From NCBI GenBank assembly GCA_041640295.1, contig JBEQAR010000001.1, positions 16,453 through 80,452 on the forward strand: a stretch of DNA of 64,000 nucleotides, read 5' to 3'. Source of the DNA: a bacterium. Its GTDB lineage: Bacteria; Patescibacteriota; Minisyncoccia; UBA6257; HR35. Made by a program: the position numbers and the translations under genes. How positions within the stretch are numbered: position 1 is the first letter of the stretch; each line of letters starts with the position of its first letter. The notes below the pieces were generated by a model. It was not told where the DNA came from. It did not search any database and saw only the letters and a list, made by a program, of their open reading frames with translations. Below are positions 2,525-53,601 of this stretch, piece by piece.

Positions 2525-2668
2525 ATGACATTTTTAATTTTAATAGGGATATTTTTATTATTTTTATATTTTGCCTGGCAAGAACAAAAAGCTGGTAATA
2601 GCCAATGGGCAATTATTTTTATTATAGCTGGTTTTGCTTTTTTAATTATGGCAATGGTAGCTCGTTAA
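2525..2668 (+). CDS. Small hypothetical TM-hairpin protein, 47 aa; not in the supplied ORF track
   Basis: An ATG at 2525 opens an ORF that encodes MTFLILIGIFLLFLYFAWQEQKAGNSQWAIIFIIAGFAFLIMAMVAR. That is two hydrophobic helices separated by a short polar loop. No homology is recognised. Confidence 0.3.
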   Translation: MTFLILIGIFLLFLYFAWQEQKAGNSQWAIIFIIAGFAFLIMAMVAR

Positions 2669-2718: not shown

Positions 2719-3609
2719 TTATTGAATTTTAAATGGAGCTTCCAGATGGAAGTGTCGTCCTGTCGTATATTTAAATGTTCTAGGATTAATAACTGTTCCA
2801 TTTTTTAATCTAATAGGAGGACCGGCTTCATAGATGATTTTTGCAAAACCTGCATCTTGAGCTGCTTCATATATATTTGCCCAGGCTTCATTATCATCTC
2901 TCCTTGTAGGTACTACATCGATAGCGGTACCATATAAAGTGTGACTTTTTGATTGATGATCGCCCCTCGAATAACCATCTGTTAAAATAACTGTAGTATC
3001 TCTATTTTTTAATTCTTCGTTAAATTTTATTAACAAATCTTTTAAATTTCTATTCACATATTCGGTTCCGTTATCGTTGTTTTCTGGAATAATATTACTT
3101 AAACCCGAAGGGAATAATTCTCTCCAAGAAACAATTTCTTCCTTTCTGCCAGTAATTATAATTAAAGCTCCAACCTTAGAATTTGTAGGAAAATTTCTTA
3201 TGTCTGTATCTGTTAAACTTTCAATCTCTAATCTTACCACCTGATAAATAACAATCCTTGGATCAAAAATAAATGGATTAATCCAATAAAGAACAGCACC
3301 AGAAAGAAAAATAACTACCAAACCAATAATAGCATTTTTCATCATTGATTTACCTTCCATTTTAACATCAGGTACAACACTTAATAAATTCTTAAAAGCA
3401 CCAAATAAAAAAACAAAAAATGCTAAAACAACAGCAATAGCTACACCTAAATTGTATAATCCTTGAAGACAATAAGAAATAGCATTAGGATTACCAATAT
3501 TAGACTCTCCACAATAATTTGAAATAAAATCTATTGGATTTTGTCCAAAAGTTTGCAAGGGTAATAATAGTAAAAAAATGAAATAAATTAATAAGAAATT
3601 AAACTGCAT
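2719..3609 (-). CDS. Secreted, membrane-anchored protein combining an N-terminal pilin-like TM hairpin with a C-terminal peptidase M15 (VanY/D-Ala-D-Ala carboxypeptidase-like) domain
   Basis: There is a signal peptide with a TFG-Q cleavage context and a Cys pair ahead of two TM helices separated by a K-rich loop. The C-terminus carries M15/LAS zinc-ligand motifs (SKSHTLYGTAIDV and HFHLE). It is tightly coupled to glyQS. Confidence 0.6.
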   Translation of the reverse strand: MQFNFLLIYFIFLLLLPLQTFGQNPIDFISNYCGESNIGNPNAISYCLQGLYNLGVAIAVVLAFFVFLFGAFKNLLSVVPDVKMEGKSMMKNAIIGLVVIFLSGAVLYWINPFIFDPRIVIYQVVRLEIESLTDTDIRNFPTNSKVGALIIITGRKEEIVSWRELFPSGLSNIIPENNDNGTEYVNRNLKDLLIKFNEELKNRDTTVILTDGYSRGDHQSKSHTLYGTAIDVVPTRRDDNEAWANIYEAAQDAGFAKIIYEAGPPIRLKNGTVINPRTFKYTTGRHFHLEAPFKIQ

Positions 3610-3610
3610 C

Positions 3611-4948
3611 TTAATTTTTTCTCAATTTTTCATTAATATAATTTAATAAATCATCGAAATGAACTCTATCTTGTTTAGCTGTATCTCTATCTCTAATAGT
3701 AAATGTATTATCTTCAAGTGATTGGAAATCAACCGTTAAACAAAATGGTGTACCTATTTCGTCTTGTCTTCGATAGCGTCTACCAATTGAACCACTTTCA
3801 TCATAAAAAACAATATAATAGTTCTTTAAATAATTATAAATTTCTTTTGCTTTTTTTATTAAGTTATCTTTATTTGAAAGTAATGGGAAGATAGCAATTT
3901 TTATTGGTGCAACCTGAGGAGCAAGTTTTAAAACTATTCTTTTTTCTCCATCAATTTCATCTTCATCATAAGCATCACAAATTAAAGCCAGAAAAATTCT
4001 TTCCACTCCCCAAGAAGGTTCAATAACATAAGGAATTATTTTTTTATTTTCTCTTTCATCAAAATAAGATAGATCTTTACCAGAAAATTTATTATGAGCC
4101 GATAAATCATAATCACCCCGATGAGCAATACCTTGAATCTCGTCATCACCAAAAGGAAATTTATAATAAATATCAATAGTTCTTTTTGAATAATGGGCTA
4201 ATTCTTCTTTTGCTTGCTCATAGATTATTAAATTTTTTTCTTTAAAGCCAAGAAATTTTGTATACCAGATTAAACTTTTTTCTAACCAATAATTTAACCA
4301 ATCAAAATTATCTTGAGGGTGAATGAAAAATTCAATTTCCATCTGTTCAAATTCTCTCATTCTAAAAATAAAATTTTTAGGTGTAATTTCATTTCGAAAA
4401 GCTTTACCAACTTGAGCGATTCCAAAAGGTAACTTAGCTCGATAAATTTTTAAATATTTATCAAAATTAACAAAAATTCCTTGAGCTGTTTCTGGTCTTA
4501 AAAAAGCTTGATAGGCTGATTCTTCTGTCGGACCAACATAAGTTTTGAACATTAAATTAAATTTTTTAGGTTCAGTTAAATTTCCACCACAAAGTGGGCA
4601 TAAATAATTTTCATTATTCTTTTTCACTTCACCATATTCACCCTTGAGATAATGATCGTACCTAAATCGATTATGACAATTTTTACACTCTATTAATAAA
4701 TCATAAAAATTTTCTAAATGACCTGAGGCTTGAAAAACTTCTGATTTACTAATTATCGGTGTTTCCAATAAGAAAATATTATTTTCTTGAAGAATAAAAT
4801 TAAACCACAAATTTTTAATATTATTTTTCATTAAAACCCCTAAATGACCAAAATCATAGAAACCCTTTAAACCGCCATATAAATCATAAGAATAAAAAAC
4901 AAATCCTCTTCTAGTAATTAAATTAACTATTTTTTCAAAATTAGACAT
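3611..4948 (-). CDS. glyQS: Glycyl-tRNA synthetase, dimeric class II type
   Basis: The 445-aa protein starts YDLYGGLKGFYDFGHLGVLMKNNIKNLW and carries class II motifs, consistent with the alpha2-type GlyRS. Confidence 0.9.
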   Translation of the reverse strand: MSNFEKIVNLITRRGFVFYSYDLYGGLKGFYDFGHLGVLMKNNIKNLWFNFILQENNIFLLETPIISKSEVFQASGHLENFYDLLIECKNCHNRFRYDHYLKGEYGEVKKNNENYLCPLCGGNLTEPKKFNLMFKTYVGPTEESAYQAFLRPETAQGIFVNFDKYLKIYRAKLPFGIAQVGKAFRNEITPKNFIFRMREFEQMEIEFFIHPQDNFDWLNYWLEKSLIWYTKFLGFKEKNLIIYEQAKEELAHYSKRTIDIYYKFPFGDDEIQGIAHRGDYDLSAHNKFSGKDLSYFDERENKKIIPYVIEPSWGVERIFLALICDAYDEDEIDGEKRIVLKLAPQVAPIKIAIFPLLSNKDNLIKKAKEIYNYLKNYYIVFYDESGSIGRRYRRQDEIGTPFCLTVDFQSLEDNTFTIRDRDTAKQDRVHFDDLLNYINEKLRKN

Positions 4949-4972: not shown

Positions 4973-6817
4973 CTATTTAATATTTAAAACTGTTATTGGT
5001 CGCGTTTTAATCTCAAAAATTTTTTGAGAAAATTTCCCTTGAGCAGTAATGTTAAATTCAGGTAATACAACGAAATCTCTAATATCACCGTATAGAGGCG
5101 GAGTAACGCTAATTTGAAAAGCAATTTGATAAGGTGGATAGACATCACAATAACCATACGAAAGATCATTAATTAAATAACTAAATTCACCTGTATCTGG
5201 ATTAAATTGCAAATTATTAGTATCAAAATTTAAATCAAAATTTCCCGTTAAACTCACTCCTAAAGGTATTTTCCCTTTAATCATTACATTTTGAAAATCT
5301 TCTCCAAAGGAACAAATATTAAAATAAGCACTTAGTGTAGTTTGTTGACCTTTAACTAATGGGAATGGACCGCTATTAGAAAAATATTTATCATAAGTAA
5401 TTTTAGGTTCTATTTTTATTTCGCCTGGAATAACTTTTGTTTCCTGAGTTTCGACAGTTAATTTTTTTGAAAGAATTTGAACTTCGGGAGGTATTGATTC
5501 TGTTTCTAAAACTGCTTTGGTTATTAAGGTTAAATCTTTTTTACCTGCTGGGTAGTTATTGACAGTTTTAATAGTAAAACGCACTGAATTTTTATTACCA
5601 GGTTGAATAGAAATTAATTCTGGTTTATTCCTTGCATTCCAAATAATTGAATTCTCAACAGGAGAAAAATAGCCATCAGTATTAATAGACTCAAAGTTAA
5701 AATCACCACTCAAATAAACTTTTACTTGTACATTTTCTAATGAAATTTTAGATTTATTTTCCCAAGTAATTTCATAAGTTAAATATTTATTTAACTCAAC
5801 TAAATAATCGGATGGATTAGAAGTAATAAACAATCTGATTGGGCTCTCAATAATATTTAAAGTTAAATTATAAGTTTTCAAAGCAAACTTTTTATTTCGA
5901 TAAATAATTTCAGGTTTAAAAGAAATTAAAGCATTATTAACAGGATGCGTTATTTTTGCAGTTATATTAATTTCTTCAGGTTGATTAATTTTTATTTGGT
6001 TAAATTGCCATTCCAATCCATAAGTAGGTGGAGGTTCAATCACTAAAGCTTCAATTCGAGGATTGGTTTCTAAAGATAAATTTAAATCATAAGTGGCTTC
6101 GGCAATATTGGTAAACTTAAGTGAAAGCAAAAACGGTTCATTGGTAAAAATTTGATTAGGAGCGAAAACTTGAAATAAAATAGGTTCTTTATTAACAGTA
6201 ATTAACAAATTTTTAGTTAAAGAAAATGATTGATTTTTCTTAGGGCTTAAATAATAAAGTTCAACATTAAGATTTAAATTTTTCCCAACATTAGCAAGAA
6301 AAAATAATTTAACTTTAATTTCTTTGCTCTCTTTCGACTGGAAATTACCCAAGTTATAAACAATTTTATTCTCCTCTGGATTATCAAAAGAGTAAATACC
6401 TTCATCTAATTTAATAATTGCTTTTACTTCATTAATTTCGTAATTAGAACCATTAGTTATTTTTATTGAGTATTCGTAGTTTTGGAGAGAGTTAACTTCA
6501 ATTGGACCAATGATTTCAATATTAATTCCTTTTAAATAAATACTACGATAATAAAAAATAAATGAAAATATACCAACACTAACTAAAAATAATAAAAATG
6601 AAATAATAAAAATTTTTTTCAAATTAAATTTAAAAAATGGAAACAGACTTGCTTCTTCTAATTGTTGTTGCCAATCTTCTTCTTGGGCTGGCGATTTTAA
6701 TTTCTTTCCCCAAATTTTTTTAACTTTACCTAATCGCTCTGATTTAATTTCACCATATAACTCTTTTTCTAATTTTTCTTCTAAGGAAGAATCTTCTTTG
6801 GGAATCTTATCTTCCAT
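4973..6817 (-). CDS. Hypothetical membrane-anchored surface protein with repeated beta-sandwich-like segments
   Basis: The 614-aa product has a charged N-terminus, a single TM at about residues 65-90, then a long extracytoplasmic region rich in N, Y, T and E with repetitive periodicity, reminiscent of CARDB/DUF11-like domains. There is no catalytic motif. Confidence 0.45.
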   Translation of the reverse strand: MEDKIPKEDSSLEEKLEKELYGEIKSERLGKVKKIWGKKLKSPAQEEDWQQQLEEASLFPFFKFNLKKIFIISFLLFLVSVGIFSFIFYYRSIYLKGINIEIIGPIEVNSLQNYEYSIKITNGSNYEINEVKAIIKLDEGIYSFDNPEENKIVYNLGNFQSKESKEIKVKLFFLANVGKNLNLNVELYYLSPKKNQSFSLTKNLLITVNKEPILFQVFAPNQIFTNEPFLLSLKFTNIAEATYDLNLSLETNPRIEALVIEPPPTYGLEWQFNQIKINQPEEINITAKITHPVNNALISFKPEIIYRNKKFALKTYNLTLNIIESPIRLFITSNPSDYLVELNKYLTYEITWENKSKISLENVQVKVYLSGDFNFESINTDGYFSPVENSIIWNARNKPELISIQPGNKNSVRFTIKTVNNYPAGKKDLTLITKAVLETESIPPEVQILSKKLTVETQETKVIPGEIKIEPKITYDKYFSNSGPFPLVKGQQTTLSAYFNICSFGEDFQNVMIKGKIPLGVSLTGNFDLNFDTNNLQFNPDTGEFSYLINDLSYGYCDVYPPYQIAFQISVTPPLYGDIRDFVVLPEFNITAQGKFSQKIFEIKTRPITVLNIK

Positions 6818-24730: not shown

Positions 24731-27349
24731 TTATCTTGTTGTAGAATTTTGGGTTGCGGATAATATCTTGATTTCTATTTCATTACTTTTTCTTCCATCA
24801 TCACTTAAAAGGAGTAATTTATATTCGCCTGGTAAAATTATAGTTAATGCAAAGCAGATAGAGTCAGATGGATTAAAAGAATAACATCTAGCAACTGATC
24901 GAGGAAATGAAGATATTTCTATAGTATTATTATCTATAACTTTGAAATTATCTATATAACCACTATAAACACTAATAGTATCCGGTGAATTAGAATATTT
25001 TCCTTTTACCTCTATAACTAATCTATTAGCTGTTTTGAAATTTTCTCCTTTAATTATTACCTTATCACCAGGAAGAATTGCTTGTGGGTCTATAGAAAAT
25101 ATCTTTAATTCTTTAACATTATACATCAAATCGGGTTTAAGATCCCCTCTTTTACCAAAATTATTTAAGACAATCCTAAGATCTTTATCATCAATTTTAT
25201 TATCTAAGTTTAAATCATATCTTATCCCATTTTCTTTTAGAACATCTTGACCAAAATTAAAGGTAATATTCAAAATATCGCTATCATTAATAACATCATC
25301 ATTATTAGTATCACCATTAGTGAGATATATTTTATCAGTATAATTAAGAGAAATAATTTTCCTAAAATGACTTAAAAAATGAGGAAATTGAAAACTAACT
25401 GCAGGATCAGAGCATTTAGGAATCTCTATTGAGCCCTCATAACTACGATTAGCTAAATTAACATTAATTCTTTTTTGATTATAAATAGTATTTCCACAAT
25501 AAGTAGTAATAGTTCCTTCAGTAATTACATTTTTAGCAGTATCAGCTATATCATTAAAGTAAAGAACAAAATTATAATTTTCAAAAGTTCCTACTTCGTC
25601 ATCATAAATTTCAAATTCAACTCTATTACTTTCTTTATTATAAGCATTAATTACAAAGATTTCATATTTTCCTACAAATTGTTCTTTAAACCATTTATAT
25701 CTACTAGTTTCATCAAAGAAAGCTTGTGGTTCACCTTGTGTAAGAAGACAAATTATTGGGTTATTAATATCATAATCAGTAATACTACAACTAGTCATAT
25801 TAAGAGCATTCAAAGCTGTAACATAGATTTTATCATAAACACCTATAAGATCATTGATTGGCGGTGTTTTGCCAGTGCTAGCTATAAAATCAAAAGTTCT
25901 TTGATTATCTTTTTTAACAAACCTTAATATATTTTGTTGCGTAAAACCAGTACCTTCTAATGTTAAACTTGTTATAGGCATATTACCCATAAAGCTTTTT
26001 AGTGATATTCTTTTAGGATAATAATTATCTATTCTAGGTATAATATTTAAATCTTCCTGACATTCTTCATATTCTTTGTTTACCATTATTTGAATTATTT
26101 TTAATGTTTCACCAGAAACTATACCATTAGCTGGTAATTGATAAAATCTTTGAAATTTTTTAACTGCTCCCTCGGTTAATCTTCCAAAATAACCAGTTAT
26201 TAACCTCTCGGGATAAAATCCTTTATTAGTTAAAATTAATTGAAAAAGATAAACTTCATTTCTACGATCACCTCTTTTCATTTCTGGTAAATCACAAGAT
26301 ACTTCAGGACTACCAGGTAATTCATCAAGAATTATTGTTCTTTTAGATTTTGGAGTTTCTTTATTAACAATCTTAAAATAAGCTGAATCAAAATAACCAC
26401 CTATAAAATAATTATTCTCTAAAGTTGGCTTATAATGTCTAATATCTAAATCATAATATTTTTCAAGTAAATATAAAGGGAAAACTGAAAACCTGATTCG
26501 GTAATTACCATTTTGAATATATTCAGGTATAGTCCAATCATAAGATCGTTTAAAAATCGGAACTTTGGCAATATGAGTTACATACCCTCTATCAGAAACT
26601 AAATCAAGAGAAAGGGTTTGAATAGGAAGATAAAAATAAGTTTGATTTTCTGTAGGAAAAACTGAATATTGATCAGAACCACCTCCTTGAGGAATATAAT
26701 TTTGAGATGATGTGCTTGAAATCTGATGACGAGGTGCTTCTAAAATACTACTAGTTGATTCGCTTTCAACTTGAGGATTTCTACCAGACATTGGTTGAGC
26801 TACATATTCCCATTCAATAGTGTAAGTTTGACCGACATACCAAGTATCATTAGCTTTAGGAGAAAGTACAGTTAAAGAAAAATTATTTCTCGGCGAATAC
26901 AATAAATCAGTTTCTTGTGGTCCTACTGTTGTTTCCGCTCTTTCTGGTAATTTTGATCCTCCCGCTGATGTTTCTGCTGGTGTTCTTAATTCTCTTCCTT
27001 TTGTTTCTTGAGTAAATAGAGGAGAAAGAAGACTTAAGATCACCTCAATAGTTTTTTTATCTAATTTTCCAGTTGTAGGTAAATCAAATCTTTTTTGAAA
27101 TTCTTTTAAGGCTTGAACTGTTTGATTATCAATTTGACCTGTAATTTTTAAATCTTTCTTATTCAAAGTTTCTCTTAATAATTCTTGAACAAAACGAATG
27201 TCATTAACAGTTGGTTGCTTTTCTAATTTTAATTTTAATTGATTAACATCGGTAATTTTTTTGGTTGGCGTTGAAGTTTGCGCAAAACTTAAATTAAAAA
27301 CTATAATAGAGATCAATAAAAATATATAAATCTTAATAAAACTTTTCAT
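24731..27349 (-). CDS. Large secreted protein with two peptidoglycan-binding (PG_binding_1-like) domains and a dockerin-type calcium-binding repeat pair
   Basis: The 872-aa product has a signal peptide (SFA-QT). PGBD-like segments are VNDIRFVQELL...ALKEFQKRFDLPTTGKLD and VYLFQLILTNKGFYP...VKKFQRFYQLPANGIV. Dockerin-like repeats are GDTNNDDVINDSDILNITFNFG and DLNLDNKIDDKDLRIVLNNFG. Confidence 0.55.
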   Translation of the reverse strand: MKSFIKIYIFLLISIIVFNLSFAQTSTPTKKITDVNQLKLKLEKQPTVNDIRFVQELLRETLNKKDLKITGQIDNQTVQALKEFQKRFDLPTTGKLDKKTIEVILSLLSPLFTQETKGRELRTPAETSAGGSKLPERAETTVGPQETDLLYSPRNNFSLTVLSPKANDTWYVGQTYTIEWEYVAQPMSGRNPQVESESTSSILEAPRHQISSTSSQNYIPQGGGSDQYSVFPTENQTYFYLPIQTLSLDLVSDRGYVTHIAKVPIFKRSYDWTIPEYIQNGNYRIRFSVFPLYLLEKYYDLDIRHYKPTLENNYFIGGYFDSAYFKIVNKETPKSKRTIILDELPGSPEVSCDLPEMKRGDRRNEVYLFQLILTNKGFYPERLITGYFGRLTEGAVKKFQRFYQLPANGIVSGETLKIIQIMVNKEYEECQEDLNIIPRIDNYYPKRISLKSFMGNMPITSLTLEGTGFTQQNILRFVKKDNQRTFDFIASTGKTPPINDLIGVYDKIYVTALNALNMTSCSITDYDINNPIICLLTQGEPQAFFDETSRYKWFKEQFVGKYEIFVINAYNKESNRVEFEIYDDEVGTFENYNFVLYFNDIADTAKNVITEGTITTYCGNTIYNQKRINVNLANRSYEGSIEIPKCSDPAVSFQFPHFLSHFRKIISLNYTDKIYLTNGDTNNDDVINDSDILNITFNFGQDVLKENGIRYDLNLDNKIDDKDLRIVLNNFGKRGDLKPDLMYNVKELKIFSIDPQAILPGDKVIIKGENFKTANRLVIEVKGKYSNSPDTISVYSGYIDNFKVIDNNTIEISSFPRSVARCYSFNPSDSICFALTIILPGEYKLLLLSDDGRKSNEIEIKILSATQNSTTR

Positions 27350-37258: not shown

Positions 37259-38419
37259 TTACATAAGATCCTCTTTGGTTGTAAAATTAGGTTTTGAATT
37301 GGGGCAGGTAGATGATTTTTTAAAATTAATAATTTTTTGATAATTATTTTCAATAATAGATTGCAGTTCTTGATCAGTATTTAAATTAATGTAAATTGTA
37401 TCAAAAATATTTTTTGTTTTTTCTAAATTATGTGAATACATTATTAAATTATGCCCAGCCTTAAGAGCTTTTATTCCTCTTTCTGCCGGATCTATTCCTT
37501 TAATATCTAAAATCATCTCCGAAAGATCATCGCTAATAATAATACCATTAAAATTTAATTGCCTCCCTAAAATTTCTTTAATAATTTTAGAAGAAAAAGT
37601 AGCTAAATTCTTAGAATCTATATTTTCATAAATAGCATGACCAGTCATTACAAAATCAGCTCCATTATTTATACCATCTTTAAAAATCATTAAAGATTGA
37701 TTAAACATATCTCGTTGAACACTAAGTATTGGTAATTCATCGTGTGGATCTTTGGTAAAAACTCCTAAACCAGGAAAATGCTTTAAGGTAGCTGAAATAT
37801 TGTATTTTTTTAATAAGTTAATAAATGTTCTATTAAATGATATTAAATCTTCATAATTATCAAAAGGAATTCGTTTTTTAATAAAGCTATCATTATTAAA
37901 AGGAAAATCGGCGAGAGGCGCAAGTAAAACATTAATTCCTAATTTAGATAAAACTTCGACTCCTTGTTCGATAGTTCTCCAATCAGGAAAATTAAAATAA
38001 AAAACATTTTGAAATAATTTAAGTCGAGTAGCCCCGTTAGGTTCTTCATCTATCATAATAAAATAACAAGTACCACTTTCCTCCTGGGAAATTTTTTGTA
38101 ATTGACTGATTAATTCTTTAAATTGCAAATTTGATTGATAATTTCTTGCATAAAGTACAATGCCTGCTGGTTTAATATATCGAAGAATAGCCTCAGTTTT
38201 TTCATCAATTATCTTATTAGGAATTCCAACTACCAAATTTTGTCCTAATTTTTCTTTAAAATTTTTATTTAAGTTAGTTTCAATATTATTCTTTTTAGAA
38301 AATAAAAGAAAAGGATTACTTGGTTGATAAAAATTTAAATTCGGTTGTTTAATAATAAATAAGCAAATAATTAATGTAGTAAAAAAGATTAATAGAACTA
38401 AATTTATTTTTAACCCCAT
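37259..38419 (-). CDS. Membrane-anchored glycoside hydrolase family 3 enzyme, NagZ-like beta-N-acetylhexosaminidase
   Basis: An N-terminal TM is followed by a GH3 N-domain with the motifs INVLLAPLADF and KHFPGLG, plus the catalytic Asp-His context DPHDELP. Confidence 0.7.
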   Translation of the reverse strand: MGLKINLVLLIFFTTLIICLFIIKQPNLNFYQPSNPFLLFSKKNNIETNLNKNFKEKLGQNLVVGIPNKIIDEKTEAILRYIKPAGIVLYARNYQSNLQFKELISQLQKISQEESGTCYFIMIDEEPNGATRLKLFQNVFYFNFPDWRTIEQGVEVLSKLGINVLLAPLADFPFNNDSFIKKRIPFDNYEDLISFNRTFINLLKKYNISATLKHFPGLGVFTKDPHDELPILSVQRDMFNQSLMIFKDGINNGADFVMTGHAIYENIDSKNLATFSSKIIKEILGRQLNFNGIIISDDLSEMILDIKGIDPAERGIKALKAGHNLIMYSHNLEKTKNIFDTIYINLNTDQELQSIIENNYQKIINFKKSSTCPNSKPNFTTKEDLM

Positions 38420-38422
38420 TAT

Positions 38423-41023
38423 CTAAAATTTGATATTTCCACGATCATCAACATTAAAATTTTTAACTCTTATTTTTCCTTCTAAATCAACCTCTCTTGT
38501 TGAATAATAGTAATAAGGATCTTTATTGATAAACCAAATTATAAATTTCTTTATATTTTGATTATCAATTCTATCACCTTCTACCCTTACAAGATTAAAA
38601 GCAACAGAATAAGAGGAATTTTTATTTAATTTCTCTAATAGAATTAACGGAATATTTATTTTTTTGCCTGGCTCTATATTTTTACCTAATAAAATATTTT
38701 TAATTTGATCAAATGGAATTTTTGCTATAGTATTCTTGTTAGAATCTTCTATTATAATATCTTTAATTTTCCAACTACCAAAGAACTCCTCAATTTTTTT
38801 TAAAGTATGATTATCTATTATGATTTTATCTCTACCTATGTTTTCAAAATAAATATCAAAAGAATTATTATTTAAATTTTTTTCAAAATCTATATTACCT
38901 ATTTCTTCATCAGCCAAATAAGCATAATATTTAAAATCAGGATTACATTCTGAAGATTCCCATTCAGCATATGATTCTACTAATAAATTATTTTTTTTAA
39001 GATTTCCTCTGTAAAAATTCTTATCTTTATCCATTAAAATCAAATCAGTTATTTCTATTGAAAGTTCTCCACCTTTATTATTAGGCTTATAATAAATTTG
39101 CATTACATCAACATCTTTATCTATAAAAATTGGTTGATCTAATTTGTACCAATATATTCCATCTCTCTCTTCAACTAAAGATAAAGTTGAACTGCCTACT
39201 GTTTCATAATCATAAAAAGGGCCGCAGGCATATGTTGGTTTTATTAAATTTTGAAAATATTTTCCAATATTACCTTCTCTTTTCAGAAACTCTATTTTGA
39301 ATTCTTTTATTAAATCAATATTATTAATATTAAAACCAATATAAACTAACAAAAACTTATCAGAAATTTTGATAACCGTTCCAATATAAGAGAAAAAATG
39401 ACTCTCTACACCCAAAATAGGATATTCATATTCTTTAGGTTTGTCTAATCCCCTTTTGTAAGCTTGAGAATATTTAGGAATTAATAAAAATTTTTTCTGA
39501 GTTACTTCATCTGTGTATTGATTAATACTATAATATTCACTATGCGGAGAATTAGGAAGATAAGCATAGCATAAATGAATAGTTACTTTATCTGTAGTTT
39601 TTAAATTTTTAATTGAAACGAAATCAATAATTTTATCGGCTAATGTTTTTTCAAAAATTAATTCTTCATCACTCCAATAAATTTCTGGCACTCTAATTTC
39701 TATTTTATTATATTTATAAGCTATTAAAGCTTCTTTTTCATTTAAAGCTTTTTTATAAATTCTTATACCATCTATATAACCAACAAAAGTTGATTCAATA
39801 TTTAAATTTGTTCCTCCAATTTGTAAATCACCTGGTTTCGCTATTTCTGTCCAATATTGAGAAACATTATCAATATCATTATCTTTTTTTTCTCCATTAA
39901 TATAAAAATTCACTTCTTTAGTTTTGAAATTCCAAGTAACGATTATATGATTCCATTCATTATCTTTTAAAGGATCAAAAATTAAGTTGTAATTTTTTTT
40001 AGGTGCTTGAGCAGGATAAAAATATAAATTACCATCAGGATCAATACCTAATTCGATGTTCCATTTACTATCAATAACTAATCTTTGGTATTTACCATTT
40101 TTTCTCTCAATTGGTTTGACCCATAACTCAATACTTCCTTCATTACCATTAATAGCTGATTCCTGATTTTCTTTTTGTAATATTTGGAAATAGGCGTCAT
40201 TAATATCCGTATAACCCTCTCTCTTATTCCAGTTATCAAAAAAAATAAAACATCTATTATGATGTTGGCAATTTATTAATAAATTTTGGGCAGATTGATA
40301 AATACTTAGTACTCCAAAAAATTCACTTTTGTAATTATTTCCAGTTAAATCTTCGAAATTTAATTTATATACATATTCTCCCAAGTATTTTTGGTCTGGT
40401 GTGAATAATTCGTCAGAAAATAAAAATTTTGGTTTATTAAGAATATACCAAATATCAGGTTGTGGTAATAAACTTTCACTATAATCAAAAGTTTTATTAT
40501 ATTGATTTTGTTTAATGCCAATTTTATTTTCTATTAAACTATTTATATTATTATTACTATAGTAAACAAAAACAGATTTCTTTTGATAAGGTTTTATTAT
40601 AGGAATCTCCAACAAAATTTCTGTAGTTTTATCAGTACATTTATTCAAAATTTTATATTTGATTTCCAAATTAAGATCAGGATCAATAAATTTTAAATTA
40701 TTACAATTAAAATCTAATTTACCACTTCTGACTAAAGACAAAGTGTCGAAACTGGTAAGAATTGGAAAATTTTTAAGGGAATCGTCGTTGTTTAAATTAA
40801 AAGAAAATTTACGACTATACAACTTATCAGATAAGAGATTATTATTTACATTTTCTGTTTTTTTTATTTGAAAATTAGAAATAATATTTTGTAATGAATT
40901 ATTATTACTGAAAAACTTATAAAATCCAAAAATTAAGCCAACTAAAAAAAGAAATAAAAGAATAACTATTAAAAATTTGTATTTCAACTTAAAATTTAAT
41001 AAATTAAACTTTTGAAATAACAT
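38423..41023 (-). CDS. Hypothetical membrane-anchored protein with a concanavalin-A/LamG-like lectin domain
   Basis: The 866-aa product has an N-terminal TM. The segment IELWVKPIERKNG...IIVTWNFKTKEVNFYINGEK...FVGYIDGIRIYKKAL has the LamG/Laminin-G jelly-roll pattern. Confidence 0.5.
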   Translation of the reverse strand: MLFQKFNLLNFKLKYKFLIVILLFLFLVGLIFGFYKFFSNNNSLQNIISNFQIKKTENVNNNLLSDKLYSRKFSFNLNNDDSLKNFPILTSFDTLSLVRSGKLDFNCNNLKFIDPDLNLEIKYKILNKCTDKTTEILLEIPIIKPYQKKSVFVYYSNNNINSLIENKIGIKQNQYNKTFDYSESLLPQPDIWYILNKPKFLFSDELFTPDQKYLGEYVYKLNFEDLTGNNYKSEFFGVLSIYQSAQNLLINCQHHNRCFIFFDNWNKREGYTDINDAYFQILQKENQESAINGNEGSIELWVKPIERKNGKYQRLVIDSKWNIELGIDPDGNLYFYPAQAPKKNYNLIFDPLKDNEWNHIIVTWNFKTKEVNFYINGEKKDNDIDNVSQYWTEIAKPGDLQIGGTNLNIESTFVGYIDGIRIYKKALNEKEALIAYKYNKIEIRVPEIYWSDEELIFEKTLADKIIDFVSIKNLKTTDKVTIHLCYAYLPNSPHSEYYSINQYTDEVTQKKFLLIPKYSQAYKRGLDKPKEYEYPILGVESHFFSYIGTVIKISDKFLLVYIGFNINNIDLIKEFKIEFLKREGNIGKYFQNLIKPTYACGPFYDYETVGSSTLSLVEERDGIYWYKLDQPIFIDKDVDVMQIYYKPNNKGGELSIEITDLILMDKDKNFYRGNLKKNNLLVESYAEWESSECNPDFKYYAYLADEEIGNIDFEKNLNNNSFDIYFENIGRDKIIIDNHTLKKIEEFFGSWKIKDIIIEDSNKNTIAKIPFDQIKNILLGKNIEPGKKINIPLILLEKLNKNSSYSVAFNLVRVEGDRIDNQNIKKFIIWFINKDPYYYYSTREVDLEGKIRVKNFNVDDRGNIKF

Positions 41024-41091: not shown

Positions 41092-41877
41092 TTACCTAAC
41101 AACAAGTGTGCCGTTGAGGTCGGTTCGCCAATAAGGAATATGAAGAATATTTAATTTTTGTATAGTTTCGTAATGAGGATGGCCATATCGATTTTCTCCT
41201 ACCTGAATGACTGCCCTTTTAAAATTAGCTAAAAAAAATCTATCAGAAGAATATTTTGAGCCATGGTGGGGAATCAAAAGATAATCAGCTTTAATTGATT
41301 TTTCATATTTGCTTAATAAATATTTTTCTATTTTTTGATCAATATCACCTGTAAGCAAGAAATTTTTATTATTTTTAAAAACCTTAATAACTAATGAATT
41401 TTGGTTATCGTTTTTATATCGGCGATCTGGATGTAAAATAAAAATTTTTTCAAATGGTGTTTCTATTTTATCATTAGCTTTAAGAGTAATCAGCGGAATA
41501 TTTTTTTCTTTAGCTAATTGAAGAAATTTCAAATACCCACTATCTGAAGAAAAATAAGGAGAAATAATTATGGCACCTATTTGATATCGTTCCATCAAAT
41601 CAAAAATTCCTCCGTAATGATCTTTATCTGAATGTGAAATTAAAATTAAATCAATCCGACGATGATAAAATTTAGATAAACTTTGTATTTCGCGAACTGT
41701 TTTTAGACCATAAGGACCAGCATCATAAAGAATTTTTAAGCGAGGATGATAAATTAATACACTACTTCCCTGCCCAACATTTAAAAAAGCTACAAAACTC
41801 TCATTATCAAAATTACTAACTATATACCAAAACAAAAAAATATTAATTAAAACTAAAATTAAAATCAAGCCTCTCAT
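41092..41877 (-). CDS. comEC: ComEC/Rec2 C-terminal metallo-beta-lactamase domain protein (separate ORF)
   Basis: MBL motifs are present: FLNVGQGSSVLIY and LILISHSDKDHYGG (HxHxDH-like), then IPHHGS. There is an N-terminal hydrophobic helix. The ORF overlaps the upstream ComEC membrane ORF by 35 nt in a different frame. Confidence 0.75.
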   Translation of the reverse strand: MRGLILILVLINIFLFWYIVSNFDNESFVAFLNVGQGSSVLIYHPRLKILYDAGPYGLKTVREIQSLSKFYHRRIDLILISHSDKDHYGGIFDLMERYQIGAIIISPYFSSDSGYLKFLQLAKEKNIPLITLKANDKIETPFEKIFILHPDRRYKNDNQNSLVIKVFKNNKNFLLTGDIDQKIEKYLLSKYEKSIKADYLLIPHHGSKYSSDRFFLANFKRAVIQVGENRYGHPHYETIQKLNILHIPYWRTDLNGTLVVR

Positions 41878-43129
41878 TTTTATTAATTTTAATCATATAA
41901 AAAAATATCAAAAAATAAATAGCAAGAGTAAAAACTAATGGCATTGGTAAGTATAATTTTGGTAATTTAGCTAAAAAATTAATAATTAATCCAAAGAGTT
42001 CAAAAGGTAAATTGATAATCTGATTAACTGGATAAAAATAAACTAAAAATAAACTAAAAAATCCAATAAGCATTAAATAAGGAATAATAGAAACAACTAG
42101 AGCATTATTAAAAAACGAAAAAAGATTAAATTCGCCAAATTTATACCACAAAAGAGGAATAACTAAAATTTGAGCTGAAATAACTTCACTTAAAAATTTA
42201 AATTTCAAAATTTTTCTAAAATATTCCTCCCAATAAACAAGACCAACGGTTGCTAAAATAGAAAGTTGAAAACCCAAATCATTAACTAAGGCTAAAGGGT
42301 CAAATAGACTAATTATCAAAGCAGTAAAAATTAAAACATTCCTTTGAAGAGCTGGCTTGCCAATTAATTTAGAAAAAATAAAAACTATCATCATTATTCC
42401 TGCTCGAATTACCGAAGATTGAAAACCAGTTAAAACAACAAAAATCAAAATAAAAATTATTGACAAAAAATTAATTAGAAAAAAATTAAAAGCTAAAGAA
42501 TTAAATAAACGATGAACAGCTGAAGAAATAACAATAAGGTTATAACCAGACATTGCTGTAATGTGAGAAAGTCCTGAATGACGAAAATTCTCTCTTAATT
42601 CTTTATCATTTATCTCACGACCATATAAAATCCCACTTATTATTTCTGAACTAACTAAGGAATAATTTTTATCAATCAATTGATTAATATAATTTCGTAA
42701 TTGATAAAATGGAGTATAAATTGAATGTTTGACTTCTTTCAGTTCCTTAATAAAAATTCTATTTCCCTGAATATCAAATTGAGCAATAAGACTATCTTTA
42801 GGAAATAATTTATTGTAATAATAAGGTAAATAGACAAAATAATTTTCTCCCTTGAATTTACCTAAATATTTATGGTAGTAATTAGTTGAAGGAAATTCTT
42901 TTATTAAATAAATTTTATTATCAGCAGTTTGCTTTTGAATTAATTGAAAAAATATCAAATAACCTCCACCCAATAAAAAAGCCAAAGAAAATAATAAAAC
43001 TAAAAATAATCTTCGAAAAAATACTAAACTAATAAAAACAAAAATCAACCAAAAATTAAAATAATACTTCAAAATAATACCCAAAAGAAAAAAGAGCGAA
43101 AAGAAAAAGAAAAGATTAGCAGGCATCAA
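41843..43129 (-). CDS. comEC: ComEC/Rec2 competence-domain polytopic membrane protein (DNA internalisation channel)
   Basis: The 428-aa product has multiple TM helices and the competence-domain motif NFRHSGLSHITAMSGYNLIVIS, which matches the ComEC SGLH..A.SG.N region. Confidence 0.7.
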   Translation of the reverse strand: MMPANLFFFFSLFFLLGIILKYYFNFWLIFVFISLVFFRRLFLVLLFSLAFLLGGGYLIFFQLIQKQTADNKIYLIKEFPSTNYYHKYLGKFKGENYFVYLPYYYNKLFPKDSLIAQFDIQGNRIFIKELKEVKHSIYTPFYQLRNYINQLIDKNYSLVSSEIISGILYGREINDKELRENFRHSGLSHITAMSGYNLIVISSAVHRLFNSLAFNFFLINFLSIIFILIFVVLTGFQSSVIRAGIMMIVFIFSKLIGKPALQRNVLIFTALIISLFDPLALVNDLGFQLSILATVGLVYWEEYFRKILKFKFLSEVISAQILVIPLLWYKFGEFNLFSFFNNALVVSIIPYLMLIGFFSLFLVYFYPVNQIINLPFELFGLIINFLAKLPKLYLPMPLVFTLAIYFLIFFYMIKINKNERLDFNFSFN

Positions 43130-43132
43130 TTT

Positions 43133-44599
43133 TTATGGCGAACCGAAAATAAATTTCAAAGCAGAGAAAATAGCTGAAACAACTAATAACAAAAAGTAAC
43201 CAATAACTGCCCACTTGAGATATTCTGAACCTGTTTTAATATATTCAACTTTAATGGGTGAAATAACATAAAAAATTGCTCCAACAATTAGAAGAATAAT
43301 AAAAATTATCGGTGCTAAATCGAAAATAAAATTTCTTACTTCATCAAAAATTCTTTCGGGAGTAATTTCTCCTAATGATTCAGCCCCTCGATGCTCATCT
43401 ACCCAAACCACGGGCGGTATTACTGCTATTGGTACTTCTGTTGTCGCTATTTCAAGCTCTACCCAATTAAAAGAAAATTGACTATTAAAATTTTGAACAG
43501 CTTCTTGAAAATCTTGGACTACCTCATCTATAGTATTACCCCCAGGAGTTTGACCTGTTATCAAGGTTTCTTTTAAACATAATCTAAAAAAATCATTAAA
43601 AAGTTTTTGACTAGAACTAGCTAAATTATTCCAGAAATCAGCCTCTTGTTCGATTTGATTGGGATAAATATTTTGAAACCCTCTTTGATATCCCTGATTT
43701 CTATTAAGATTCACTATGCTAGTTGTCTTATTAAATGTTATTAAAAAACCTTGTTTATATATTGTTTCTAATAAATCTGGTATGGTTCGTCCTTGCATCG
43801 TAGAAGACGATATTGCTGAAGAGAATTTATTTAAATTAGTTAAAATATTACTTAATGTTGTAACATCATTTATACTAGTAATATCATTCCTAATTTCATT
43901 TAAAGTATTTAAACACCCTTTAATTGACCTCACTGTATTTCCCCACAACACCCCATCGTATTCTTGAATAACTCGTGAAAAATAATTTAAATAATTTTCA
44001 ATTTTTTCTAATAAATTACTTTCTCTTAAAAAATTTAAGTAAGTACGTAATAACGAGCTATCGCTTCCGAGGTTTTTAGGTGAGCAATTTAAATTAGCAC
44101 AACTAAAAAAATCAATATAATTAGTACCCCTTTCACCGTCATTATTATTAACAATAAATATTCTAATAACATCCCGAGCAACACTTTCACCCGATAAAGT
44201 TCCTTCATCAACACCCATTCCAATCTCATAATCACCAAAATTTGAAATATTAAGATCAGGAAATATGTAATTCCACAAATCAATTATGGTATTGTAATTA
44301 GAAATACTAGAAGTAGGAAAATTCCTTAATCTAGTTTTTGCATCAATAAATTTAGAAAAAATATAAGGATAAGGAAATTCATCTCTGTAACAATTTCCAT
44401 TAATATATCTACAAGCATAATATACAGGACTTCCATCATTACCTATATTTTGTAATAACCTATTTATGCTACTAAATTTTCTTACTATCTCATCAATTTT
44501 TCCTATTATCTGTCCTCTTAACTCCTGAGCGGTTTGTCCATAAACAAAATTAGAATTGAAGAATATTAATAAAATTAAAACTATAATTACCCTCCTCAT
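43133..44599 (-). CDS. Secreted protein with a C-terminal pilin-like TM hairpin
   Basis: The 488-aa product has a signal peptide (VYG-QT), a Cys-containing N/S/T-rich ectodomain and a C-terminus of TM, short K-rich loop, TM. That hairpin has the same architecture as the two downstream small proteins. Confidence 0.5.
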   Translation of the reverse strand: MRRVIIVLILLIFFNSNFVYGQTAQELRGQIIGKIDEIVRKFSSINRLLQNIGNDGSPVYYACRYINGNCYRDEFPYPYIFSKFIDAKTRLRNFPTSSISNYNTIIDLWNYIFPDLNISNFGDYEIGMGVDEGTLSGESVARDVIRIFIVNNNDGERGTNYIDFFSCANLNCSPKNLGSDSSLLRTYLNFLRESNLLEKIENYLNYFSRVIQEYDGVLWGNTVRSIKGCLNTLNEIRNDITSINDVTTLSNILTNLNKFSSAISSSTMQGRTIPDLLETIYKQGFLITFNKTTSIVNLNRNQGYQRGFQNIYPNQIEQEADFWNNLASSSQKLFNDFFRLCLKETLITGQTPGGNTIDEVVQDFQEAVQNFNSQFSFNWVELEIATTEVPIAVIPPVVWVDEHRGAESLGEITPERIFDEVRNFIFDLAPIIFIILLIVGAIFYVISPIKVEYIKTGSEYLKWAVIGYFLLLVVSAIFSALKFIFGSP

Positions 44600-45048
44600 C
44601 TTACCAGTTGATTAATTGCTTCCAAAATTTCCCGGGCGATAAAAATTATTATAAAACCTAAAATAGTCCAAAAGAAAGTTTTTTTTGCTAAATCTAAATA
44701 ATCTTTTTTAAATGGGGAATAAATCAAAAATCCAGCAATTAAAGTTAAAGAAATTAAAAATAAAATAACTGCAATATATTGAAGTACTCCTAAAACTCTT
44801 ATCAAACAGTTGTTAATTTTTTCAAAAGCATTTGAACCCTGAAGACAAGCAACATCAGCTGCTGGTCTAAAATATTGATAAAAATATCGCCAACCTTCAG
44901 GAGACAAAACATTAACTTCAGAGGAAGTTGATTCTGTTGTAGTTGAAGTTGTAGAAGTAGTTGATGTTGATGATGTTTGTGAATAAATTAAATGATTGAC
45001 TATCAATAGATTAAAAACTAAAATTGAAATTAAAATAAATTTTCTCAT
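44596..45048 (-). CDS. Small secreted pilin-like protein (VirB2/TrbC-like topology) with a Ser/Thr-rich linker
   Basis: The 150-aa product has a signal peptide (IYS-QT), an STSTTSTTSTTTESTSS tract and a Cys pair (VAC...NNC), then two TM helices separated by a KK-containing loop. Confidence 0.55.
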   Translation of the reverse strand: MRKFILISILVFNLLIVNHLIYSQTSSTSTTSTTSTTTESTSSEVNVLSPEGWRYFYQYFRPAADVACLQGSNAFEKINNCLIRVLGVLQYIAVILFLISLTLIAGFLIYSPFKKDYLDLAKKTFFWTILGFIIIFIAREILEAINQLVR

Positions 45049-45050
45049 TT

Positions 45051-45419
45051 TTAATAACCAGTATAAATATAAATCTTCGGCTTAAGAAAATCTAAAATTA
45101 AATCAAAAAATATTCCAGCTAAAAGAAGCAAAACATAATAAGTAACTGCATTGACCATCATTGTTCTACCTTTTTCTAACCAATTTTTAGTAGCTCCACC
45201 AAACATCATCATAAAAGCACCAATTAAAGCTACTAAAGCAGCTATCCAATAACCTAAAATCAGTAAAAATCTAATTACATTTTGAACAGCATTAATAAAG
45301 TCCCTCAAAGTACAAGAATCAGGAGTGCAATTTTTACCAACTAAACCACCTGACTGAGCAAAAATATAATTATTAAAGATAGATAAAATAAAAATAAAAA
45401 TTAATAAATTTTTAATCAT
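45051..45419 (-). CDS. Small secreted pilin-like protein (VirB2/TrbC-like topology)
   Basis: The 122-aa product has a signal peptide (IFA-QS), a Cys pair (NCTPDSC), TM1 (VIRFLLILGYWIAALVALIGAFMMMFGG), a basic loop and TM2. Confidence 0.55.
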   Translation of the reverse strand: MIKNLLIFIFILSIFNNYIFAQSGGLVGKNCTPDSCTLRDFINAVQNVIRFLLILGYWIAALVALIGAFMMMFGGATKNWLEKGRTMMVNAVTYYVLLLLAGIFFDLILDFLKPKIYIYTGY

Positions 45420-52587: not shown

Positions 52588-52762
52588 TTAATTATAACAC
52601 AAAATTGGATTAAAAAATTAATTAATATAATTATTATAACACAAAATTATAATTATTATAAAATTATATTTTTTTCTTATTTTAAAAATAAAATTAAAAT
52701 GGAAATGAAATTTTAGTTAAATATTTTTAATTTAATTATTGAAATTTTCTAATAAATAAACC

Positions 52763-52801
52763 AAAAAACCGCCGGCGGGGATTGTACCCACATCCGGCGG
52801 T
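52763..52801 (-). terminator. Rho-independent terminator of the Pro-rich small gene
   Basis: A GC stem (A)CCGCCGG pairs with CCGGCGG(T) around an 18-nt loop at 52768-52801, followed on the minus strand by a T6 tract. Confidence 0.6.
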
Positions 52802-52818
52802 GTACTGAGATAACCCCC

Positions 52819-53097
52819 CTAAGGGGGTGGCTGGGATGGTGAGGGTGGTGGGGACGGGGGTTGGGGGTGGTAGTCCTGGTTACGGACCACCACCCGGTTC
52901 TCCTGGGCAGTCGTGCTTACAGTGATACTACCCAACTGACCCCGCTGCCAGCCACCCTCAACCAACTCGGCACTCTTTTGGAGAGCGCCGAGAGAATCGA
53001 AAGAGTTGGAGGGGGGGCGGCTGCGACGGCCCGCCATAATAAGGGCAGCAATTGCCGCTGTCCCAGACGCCCCCGCTAAAATCCAAAGAATTTCCAT
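52819..53097 (-). CDS. Small high-GC gene: N-terminal TM anchor plus Pro-rich C-terminus (92 aa)
   Basis: The ATG at 53097 is preceded by GGAGGTG 7 nt upstream. The product is MEILWILAGASGTAAIAALIMAGRR...PQPPSPPPSPSQPPP. GC content is far above the window average. Confidence 0.5.
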   Translation of the reverse strand: MEILWILAGASGTAAIAALIMAGRRSRPPSNSFDSLGALQKSAELVEGGWQRGQLGSITVSTTAQENRVVVRNQDYHPQPPSPPPSPSQPPP

Positions 53098-53118
53098 TTT
53101 TTAGCACCTCCGTTTATT

Positions 53119-53146
53119 ATTATACTACAAAAAATTTTTTTGTCAA
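53119..53146 (-). promoter_or_regulatory. Near-consensus sigma70 promoter (TTGACA-N16-TATAAT) driving the Pro-rich small gene
   Basis: On the minus strand the -35 TTGACA (plus strand 53141-53146, tgtcaa) and the -10 TATAAT (plus strand 53119-53124, attata) are 16 nt apart. The SD GGAGGTG lies at 53105-53111. Confidence 0.6.
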
Positions 53147-53150
53147 GTAT

Positions 53151-53187
53151 AAAAAAGGCGCCCATTAATGAGCGCCTTTAAAAAAAA
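53151..53187 (-). terminator. Intrinsic terminator hairpin flanked by A/T tracts on both sides (bidirectional) after the collagen-like gene
   Basis: AAAGGCGC-ccattaatga-GCGCCTTT forms an 8-bp stem at 53154-53179, with A6 and A8 tracts either side. Confidence 0.6.
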
Positions 53188-53189
53188 TG

Positions 53190-53582
53190 TTACTCCTCTT
53201 CCCTGGCCATCAGGCCCAGAAGGAGTAACAACCCGAATACCTCGGCGGCGAGAATGCCGGCGAGGACGCCGGGCAGGGGGTCGCCCGGGTCCCCTTTTGG
53301 ACCCGGCGGACCCTCAGGTCCTCTTGGCCCTTGCGGGCCAAAAGGACCAGCAGGTCCTCTTGGCCCTTGCGGGCCACGAGGGCCCCTCAATTTCTCCCGA
53401 ACCTCCTTGTCCGGGAGAACTAGTTTATCCCACTCCGCATCCTGCGGAGTGGTCCCGCCTCTCTCAATGCGGGCGGGGAGGACAATGGTTCCCTCGGCCC
53501 CCTTCTTCTCCTGAGCCAGGGCGACCGAGAAAGAAGTGAGAAGAAAAAGACCACTAAGGCCCAGGATTAAAATTAACCTCAT
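53190..53582 (-). CDS. Collagen-like (G-P-X)n repeat surface protein with a signal peptide and C-terminal TM anchor, high-GC
   Basis: The start is placed at the ATG at 53582, which has GGAGGTG 6 nt upstream; the ORF track starts at the GTG at 53591. The product has a signal peptide ([11 protein letters not shown]), 11 uninterrupted Gly-X-Y triplets ([33 protein letters not shown]) and a C-terminal hydrophobic helix. Confidence 0.6.
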
Positions 53583-53601
53583 ATAGTTCACCTCCGTTTT
53601 A

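Follow-up and report, generated by a model that had tools for sequence, protein, structure and literature searches.

A VirB2-like pilin module fused to a Hedgehog/DD-peptidase-fold domain at a conserved locus beside glyQS in Patescibacteria

We have analysed a stretch of 64,000 nucleotides (nt) from a bacterium of the patescibacterial lineage HR35 (assembly GCA_041640295.1, contig JBEQAR010000001.1, positions 16,453 to 80,452), hereafter called the window. The gene in question is an open reading frame (ORF) of 296 amino acids (aa) at 2719..3609 on the minus strand, which is also the strand of every feature of its product given below. From the ORF list and the homologues, this protein (the target) consists of a leader, a VirB2-like pilin module, a flexible linker, and a domain with the Hedgehog/DD-peptidase fold. 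An identical protein, P0001, is present in public assemblies, and 15 homologues share the two-part architecture at 33-57% identity with conserved synteny. Therefore, the ORF represents a real and conserved gene. Directly upstream lies glyQS for glycyl-tRNA synthetase (3611..4948, minus strand; Pfam tRNA-synt_2b and HGTP_anticodon). The stop codon of glyQS (3613-3611) and the ATG of the target (3609-3607) are separated by a single base (3610). A previous reading made from the letters of the window (the sequence-only reading) had described the gene as coupled to glyQS. On the one hand, the adjacency is tight and is kept in the related loci L001-L003, L009, L012-L014, L016, and L018. On the other hand, a functional link between the two genes is not evident.

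The window is AT-rich (G+C about 27%), and its housekeeping genes include those for ClpB, GroEL, SecA, DnaB, GyrA, FtsH, RecO, RecR, and ComEC as well as a tRNA cluster. Its nearest public relatives are metagenome-assembled genomes labelled Candidatus Parcubacteria, Paceibacter, or Patescibacteria. A scan for promoters and terminators around the target gave scores no better than those of shuffles.

The N-terminal 115 residues of the target can be assigned to a leader, followed by a Cys pair and by a hairpin of two helices that is of the VirB2/TrbC "T4SS_pilin" type. The leader is predicted to be cleavable and covers aa 1-22 (3544..3609), with the putative cleavage site between MQFNFLLIYFIFLLLLPLQTFG and QNP; in the AlphaFold2 (AF2) model, it corresponds to a hydrophobic helix at residues 2-21. 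The leaders of the orthologues have K-containing n-regions and A-x-A-like ends, with SLA or TNA before the Q. A short N-terminal segment, probably extracytoplasmic, carries the Cys pair C33 and C47 (3469..3513), which is invariant in 15 sequences and may form a disulfide. It is followed by the T4SS_pilin (PF18895) hairpin, which was assigned to aa 48-110 (3280..3468) with Pfam and AF2. The hairpin has hydrophobic stretches at about 53-72 and 93-110, and four lysines lie in the turn region (73-92). The AF2 helices span 2-21, 43-76, and 80-110, and the hairpin block has predicted local distance difference test (pLDDT) values of 86-94. Immediately after the second helix, the juxtamembrane motif I-N-P-x-I-F (110-115) is invariant, whatever type of C-terminal domain follows. 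A flexible tether (aa 111-129; 3222..3279) leads to the C-terminal domain; it is poorly conserved and varies in length, and residues 119-128 have pLDDT below 50. The leader, Cys pair, two helices, and Lys-bearing turn described in the sequence-only reading are thereby confirmed. A Foldseek search with the full-length model against the PDB recovered no pilin structure, a helical hairpin being low in information for such a search.

The C-terminal domain (C-domain) covers aa ~130-296 (2722..3221). With the single sequence, phmmer found only Hedgehog N-domains among the PDB sequences (E ~0.007), and a profile of seven sequences again found only Hedgehog (E 3.6e-6). When a profile of 16 sequences was compared with mouse ShhN by hhalign, the match had a probability of 90% and an E-value of 1.5e-6 over 116 columns that cover both metal motifs. 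The AF2 model built on the 16-sequence alignment reached a pLDDT of 85 and a predicted template modelling score (pTM) of 0.83. It contains a central antiparallel sheet with flanking helices and can be superposed on ShhN, VanX, and MepA. Against solved structures, the highest scores were those of Hedgehog proteins (ShhN 11.7 and 11.3, fly Hh 10.8), followed by VanX (9.1), MepA and VanYB (both 8.3), LdcB (7.4), VanXY (6.5-6.8), phage M15C endolysins (about 6), and a Streptomyces DD-peptidase (6.0). In the Foldseek search of the full-length model, Shh and Dhh alone were significant; the histidine-kinase rows of this search were not and were set aside as look-alikes with a hairpin plus an α/β domain. 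The modelled C-domain has the Hedgehog/DD-peptidase (LAS) fold and is closest to Hedgehog N-domains.

The sequence-only reading had named this domain an M15 (VanY-like) peptidase. It was right at the level of the superfamily, considering the LAS fold, and wrong in the VanY label. The Pfam models VanY (PF02557), Peptidase_M15, M15_3/_4, and HH_signal (PF01085) did not match the target, and for VanY there was no match even at E <= 10. Moreover, the structural score was lower for VanY than for Hedgehog, and the register of the motif differs. Since a true VanY domain (58 bits) occupies the same slot at the related locus L014, VanY and the target C-domain are distinct. Hedgehog is the nearest relative, but the target domain is not a member of the Hedgehog N-domain/bacHh subgroup: HH_signal does not match, the identity is 23%, and the positions of the calcium ligands are only partly acidic. 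The family itself is rare. When 1.84 billion representative proteins were searched with a profile, 57 matched at E <= 1e-3, 21 of them at E <= 1e-10, and the majority of the matches carry the pilin signature C-x-Q-x-x-Y-N. One member, P0054, combines a T4SS_pilin module, a target-type domain, and an SLT lytic transglycosylase domain (70 bits) in one protein. A tblastn search of 50,697 phage records with the C-domain gave no match.

Residues of a candidate active site are conserved in this domain. The segment H218-Q-S-K-S-H223-T-L-Y-G-T-A-I-D231 (2917..2958) contains an upstream His and, from the sequence and alignment, the putative zinc ligands H223 and D231. E261 (2827..2829) is the candidate general base and is equivalent to Shh E177 in the alignment of 'KIIYE' with Shh 'WVYYE'. 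The invariant motif H286-F-H288 (2746..2754) would supply the second catalytic His and the third zinc ligand, as indicated by hhalign. In the alignments, D231 corresponds to Shh D148, E261 to Shh E177 and VanX E181, and H286/H288 to Shh H181/H183. Among the 16 family members, D179, E183, T210-D211-G212, S214, D217-H218, S220, H223, G227-T228, D231, W243, G271, H286, and H288 are invariant, and E261 is kept as YE or DE in all of them. Across 51 remote relatives, the near-invariant positions (at least 90%) are exactly H218, G227, D231, E261, H286, and H288, and D231 shows no variation at all. A candidate His/Asp/His triad with a Glu is thus conserved on alignment, and we consider that H223, D231, and H288 may bind zinc. 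The late H-x-H of the sequence-only reading is present; its motif S-x-H-x-x-G-x-A-x-D has to be corrected to S-H-x3-G-x-A-x-D (S222-H223-T-L-Y-G227-T-A229-I-D231), in which the His stands one residue earlier. D179, E183, D211, and D217, all of them acidic and invariant, align with the segments in which Shh carries its calcium ligands (E90/E91/D96/E127/D130/D132), and this suggests a second metal site.

A first protein search showed that the N-terminal module recurs at 60-75% identity and is also fused to other C-domains. When 185,579 species genomes were scanned for the module, 12 loci were found in 7 genomes, usually two per genome; a large protein search with the module profile was swamped by hydrophobic words and yielded four fragments. 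One copy is always present at the locus of the target, which we call slot B. Its gene order is RecO, a 614-aa DUF11-like protein, GlyRS, the pilin fused to domain X, a 47-aa ORF, and Dtd. In the window and in the genomes KatS3mg094 (L012) and SRBZ-1 (L016), X is the Hedgehog-like domain. In others, X is VanY (L014, 58 bits), Peptidase_C39_2 (L013, 65 bits), YkuD (L018, 35 bits), or a weak CHAP-like domain (L009, protein P0008; 23 bits, below the cut-off). Comparison of these loci shows that the putative wall-active domain has been replaced several times at slot B, with the anchor and the locus kept constant.

The 47-aa ORF of this string is convergent with the target (2525..2668, plus strand) and was found by six-frame reading; it would encode two membrane helices and is annotated as a gene in L001, L002, and L008. 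At slot B, it is 49-87% identical across the loci with Hedgehog-like, CHAP-like, VanY, and YkuD domains. We rejected a polymorphic toxin/immunity arrangement, because this downstream ORF is conserved whatever the C-domain and no immunity gene co-varies with it. The 614-aa protein (4973-6817, minus strand) has an N-terminal transmembrane (TM) segment and weak DUF11/CLIPPER-like repeats; in the conserved string, it always lies directly upstream of glyQS, at 37-63% identity across genomes.

The second location of the module, slot A, belongs to a type IV secretion system (T4SS) cluster. Its order is PrgI-like, TraC-like, VirB4 (DUF87/AAA_10/P-loop_TraG), two further genes, the pilin fused to domain Y, and two further genes, followed by YidC, rnpA, L34, dnaA, and dnaN. 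T4SS genes and VirB2-like pilins are widespread in Patescibacteria, often near dnaA (PMC12102498), and slot A is such an origin-proximal T4SS as described there. The slot-A paralogues P0011 and P0009 carry the module of the target. The slot-A paralogue lacks the leader and starts exactly at the mature N-terminus of the target. Among nine T4SS-cluster proteins scanned, the fusion is the sole gene bearing PF18895. Its domain Y comprises about 270 Cys-rich residues, and a 14-bit hint of the Pfam 3D domain in one member is its only annotation. Two candidate patterns were tried and left unconfirmed: a three-Asp "3D" pattern (TAARD...ITDxG...WLDLF) in the C-domain of the slot-A paralogue and an E-S "SLT-like" pattern in P0014/L019. 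A glycan-cutting and a peptide-cutting enzyme may form a pair across the two genes.

The same cluster provides two side observations. In SKYB72, the slot-A fusion (L011:4642-5067) has only 141 aa; this protein, P0086, is named 'pilin' by NCBI and ends soon after the module. A frameshift, a pseudogene, or a stand-alone pilin that arose naturally from a fusion could each explain this short form. In addition, several conserved ORFs without a Pfam match (710/879, 263/250, 168, 211, 212, and 376 aa) flank VirB4 and the pilin fusion in the T4SS cluster adjoining dnaA (L004:916-3048 with its flanks and the equivalents in L005).

The two copies of the module within a genome are almost identical at the level of DNA. 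In a local DNA alignment, codons 47-122 of the target (gene nt 139-366; 3244..3471) match the module of P0009 (L005) at 223/228 nt, and of the 76 codons only 3 differ synonymously and 2 non-synonymously. Compared with its counterparts in other genomes, the target module shows 14-24 synonymous differences. P0001 and P0009 are assigned to one genome solely by their co-occurrence in ENA assembly ERZ27314177. In KatS3mg094, the two genes lie about 280 kb apart on one 634-kb contig, and their modules are identical at 237/240 nt. The within-genome identity is 97.8% for the window and P0009, 98.7% for KatS3mg094, and 98.2% for SRBZ-1, whereas between these genomes it is 73-84%; in SKYB72, the within-genome value is 92.1%, and the overall range between genomes is 67-87%. 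At synonymous positions of the 76 codons, the three near-identical pairs differ at 2-3 within the genome vs 14-30 for pairs between genomes. The identity at synonymous sites argues for gene conversion rather than protein-level selection alone, and we concluded from these comparisons that the two module copies were homogenised by gene conversion. An assembly artefact was rejected: the copies stand about 280 kb apart on one contig with 3/240 differences, and the pattern recurs in independent assemblies.

Based on these results, we favour, with moderate confidence, the interpretation that the target is a pilin-tethered extracytoplasmic zinc peptidase which acts on the stem peptides or cross-links of peptidoglycan and is functionally linked to the T4SS by the module that the two genes share. 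The leader would direct Sec-dependent insertion and then be removed. The hydrophobic helices would form a hairpin with the Lys-bearing turn on the cytoplasmic side, and this anchor would hold the enzyme at the outer face of the cytoplasmic membrane, facing the wall on a flexible tether of about 20 residues after INPxIF. Zinc held by H223, D231, and H288 would allow the cleavage of a peptide bond in the stem or cross-link of peptidoglycan, with E261 as the general base and with assistance from H218 and H286. Because the same module occurs in the T4SS-operon fusion and is kept near base-identical, we infer that it may bring both proteins to the same T4SS/pilus assembly site. The target would then be the peptide-cutting partner in a VirB1-like wall-opening function. 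The VirB1-like role proposed in the sequence-only reading gains indirect support in this way, because a near-identical module is found in a VirB4 cluster and because P0054 combines pilin, target-type, and SLT domains.

Several observations weigh against this interpretation. PF18895 matches aa 48-110 of the target with an E-value of 3.1e-5 and 24.4 bits, slightly below the Pfam cut-off of 26.6; its relatives score at or above this value, which speaks for the anchor, with 35.7 bits for the orthologue L016, 26.6 for L014 (at the cut-off), 32.5 for P0018, and 39.9 for L013. The C-domain, which the sequence-only reading proposed to check in Pfam for the M15, VanY, or Hedgehog families, has no match in Pfam, NCBIfam, or PHROG, the only hint being a 12-bit endolysin match in PHROGs. 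To our knowledge, Hedgehog has not been established as a peptidase, and the closest structural relative is therefore a poor guide to activity. VirB4 and VirD4 are absent from the 64-kb window, and the target lies between glyQS and dtd in housekeeping surroundings. In the genomes with VanY and C39, the two modules are only about 80% identical, and a pair of repeats, once present, can keep undergoing gene conversion neutrally. For the slot-A partner, the profiles A7 and A8 of the paralogue C-domain had no match among the PDB sequences. Finally, all 16 close members have H223-x7-D231, as opposed to H-x6-D, the defining zinc-ligand motif of the family (PMC6027127). Only the first ligand His is displaced; H218 and D231 keep the same distance from each other. 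As some remote relatives keep H-x6-D, the spacing H-x7-D looks like a clade-specific register shift. LAS families vary in the spacing between His and Asp, with H-x3-D in M23.

The main rival of the T4SS-tied peptidase is an ordinary housekeeping autolysin, which would trim the cell's own peptidoglycan during growth or division. The hairpin would then be a mere anchor and the module identity a neutral by-product of recombination. Its position in a housekeeping gene string is strictly conserved and tight against glyQS, with no secretion genes nearby and no co-varying immunity gene, and the replacement by VanY, YkuD, and CHAP-like domains resembles non-orthologous displacement among wall-maintenance enzymes. 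However, in each genome the T4SS operon harbours the only other copy of the module that was found, and the homogenised tract is exactly the module in three independent genomes. A plain anchor would also not need the invariant Cys pair or the Q-x-x-Y-N and INPxIF motifs. We consider the autolysin unlikely. The repeated swapping of the C-terminal enzyme at a fixed locus, with the N-terminal module kept, is a pattern typical of a variable target, and it would also agree with a weapon or penetration enzyme that is incorporated in, or passed along, a VirB2-type filament and cuts the wall of a host bacterium. In VirB2/TraA-type pili, both termini point outward, as known from F-pilus structures, and a C-terminal fusion could thus be displayed. 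Furthermore, epibiotic growth requires the patescibacterial T4SS and its pilins, and a relaxase and a coupling protein are missing from this system (PMC10633639, PMC12102498). Nevertheless, the lineage has no known host, the domain has no co-varying immunity gene, there is no sign that the fusion polymerises, and the producer's own wall would be exposed to the enzyme first; we regard a host-directed function as rather improbable.

The fusion may also be read as a precursor that is cut near INPxIF into a mature pilin of about 90 aa and a free wall enzyme, so that two genes supply the same pilin. Whatever the C-domain type, helix 2 is followed at once by an invariant INPxIF and then by a disordered linker; near-identical modules occur on two genes with unrelated C-domains, and the fusion is the sole PF18895-bearing gene found in the T4SS cluster. 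C-terminal processing is established for the maturation of TrbC and VirB2, but we know of no precedent for a large enzyme domain cut from a VirB2-type pilin, and no processing protease was identified among the T4SS-cluster proteins. This idea is wholly inferential and appears very doubtful to us. A broader proposal is that in these Parcubacteria the T4SS pilin is made only as fusions with wall-cutting enzymes, that the T4SS-operon gene and the target gene provide one and the same module with different enzymes, and that the filament carries these hydrolases as subunits or sheds them at INPxIF, as a self-drilling pilus through the wall of the producer and perhaps that of the host; we offer it as a speculation with a low probability. 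Lastly, considering that Hedgehog ligands are its closest relatives in both sequence and structure and that the H-x7-D spacing could disable metal binding, the domain could be a non-catalytic adhesin or sensor on a pilin stalk, with peptidoglycan or a different polymer of glycan and peptide as its ligand. However, a divergent family keeps all six residues of catalytic type, relatives with the canonical H-x6-D exist, and bona fide enzyme families occupy the same slot in sister genomes, so that a non-catalytic role seems extremely improbable.

Compared with known systems, the C-domain shares with the Hedgehog N-domain the core T-(D/E)-G...H-x-S...H...G-x-A-x-D...(Y)E...H-x-H. In bacHh (M15A; Roelink 2018, PMC6027127), the domain is located at the C-terminus of a membrane-anchored protein, as in the target. 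However, the identity of the target is about 23%, whereas bacHh is more than 50% identical to ShhN (PMC6027127). The target further differs from Hedgehog in the H-x7-D spacing and in an insertion of 21 residues between the Glu and H-x-H, and it differs from both Hedgehog and bacHh in having a T4SS pilin module as its anchor. The LAS zinc peptidases VanX, VanY, LdcB, and MepA and the phage M15C endolysins are structurally more distant, as the target scores lower against them than against Hedgehog.

On the side of the anchor, the leader, helix, basic turn, and helix of the target resemble those of VirB2/TrbC pilins and PF18895, and its paralogue belongs to a VirB3/VirB4 cluster adjoining dnaA, as in the T4SS of Patescibacteria. 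Unlike the known VirB2-like pilins, which are small and stand alone, the target adds an enzyme of about 180 aa at the C-terminus, and its gene lies outside any T4SS cluster. In the limited set of literature searched, we found no mention of pilin-hydrolase fusions, and pilins are treated there as small stand-alone proteins. The VirB1-like hydrolases of Gram-positive T4SSs (PrgK of pCF10, TraG of pIP501, and TcpG) are membrane-anchored and often contain glycan- and peptide-cleaving domains. P0054, with its pilin module, target-type domain, and SLT domain, has a similar multi-hydrolase layout. On the other hand, the catalytic domain of the target has no homology to the SLT, CHAP, and LytM domains of these proteins, a pilin module takes the place of a simple TM helix as its anchor, and the two activities appear to be divided between two genes, only one of which belongs to the operon. 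By analogy, such membrane-anchored multi-domain hydrolases are probably the nearest functional counterparts of the target. Polymorphic toxins, too, have a constant N-terminal module and a C-terminal enzyme swapped at a fixed locus. In contrast to them, the target is present in one copy per genome at a housekeeping locus, and the exchanged domains are all wall enzymes rather than nucleases or deaminases.

Patescibacteria are monoderms with a T4SS that unusually has VirB2-like pilins, and how the apparatus crosses the wall is an open question. Epibiotic growth of Southlakia, the one tractable species, requires the T4SS and its pilins (PMC10633639), and the canonical VirB1 of Patescibacteria is mostly unlinked to VirB4 (PMC12102498). 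Pilin modules fused to wall enzymes offer a concrete and testable answer to this question. A wall hydrolase that serves a secretion system would be the known part of the proposal, and the type of anchor and the Hedgehog-type catalytic family appear to be new. The locus is also a natural case of the replacement of enzyme domains in place on a constant anchor. The C-domain represents a rare family for which Pfam and NCBIfam have no model, and with it the Hedgehog/DD-peptidase group gains a divergent bacterial branch; an identity of 23% is too low for a direct bearing on the origin of Hedgehog.

The sequence-only reading had also connected the N-terminal hairpin with three pilin-like proteins encoded at 43.1-45.4 kb of the window. 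This relation is real, since the target and all three match PF18895 and/or TrbC (PF04956) and thus belong to a common superfamily, but it is distant, and they are not close paralogues. With a hidden Markov model of the target module, the 122-aa protein had an E-value of 1.4e-6 and the other two had domain E-values of about 0.002-0.003; the hhalign comparisons of the module with the three proteins gave E-values of 1.4e-4, 0.064, and 0.013. The genes are at 45051..45419 (122 aa), 44596..45048 (150 aa, with a Ser/Thr-rich N-terminus), and 43133..44599 (488 aa, with the pilin module at the C-terminus), all on the minus strand. Together with ComEC, these three VirB2/TrbC-like genes form an abutting or overlapping string on the same strand (41092-45419, minus strand). 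ComEC is split into an ORF with the Competence domain (41843..43129) and one with the metallo-beta-lactamase domain (41092..41877). Because they share a string with ComEC, these T4SS-type pilins are linked to a DNA-uptake channel and not to VirB4. Adjoining the ComEC/pilin genes is a gene for an 866-aa membrane-anchored protein with a Laminin_G_3/concanavalin-like lectin domain (38423-41023, minus strand), which may be a surface adhesin.

Elsewhere in the window, an island of about 900 bp at 52700-53600 has a G+C content of 51-59% within the 27% G+C genome. It contains no ORF of more than 133 aa, and its comparison with Rfam gave no match at the gathering score and chance-level matches only at E <= 1; the island may encode a large structured non-coding RNA or consist of foreign DNA. 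Two further genes of the window are related to the wall. One encodes an 872-aa protein with two PG_binding_1 domains (24731-27349, minus strand), and the other encodes a NagZ-like member of glycoside hydrolase family 3 with an N-terminal TM segment (37259-38419, minus strand).

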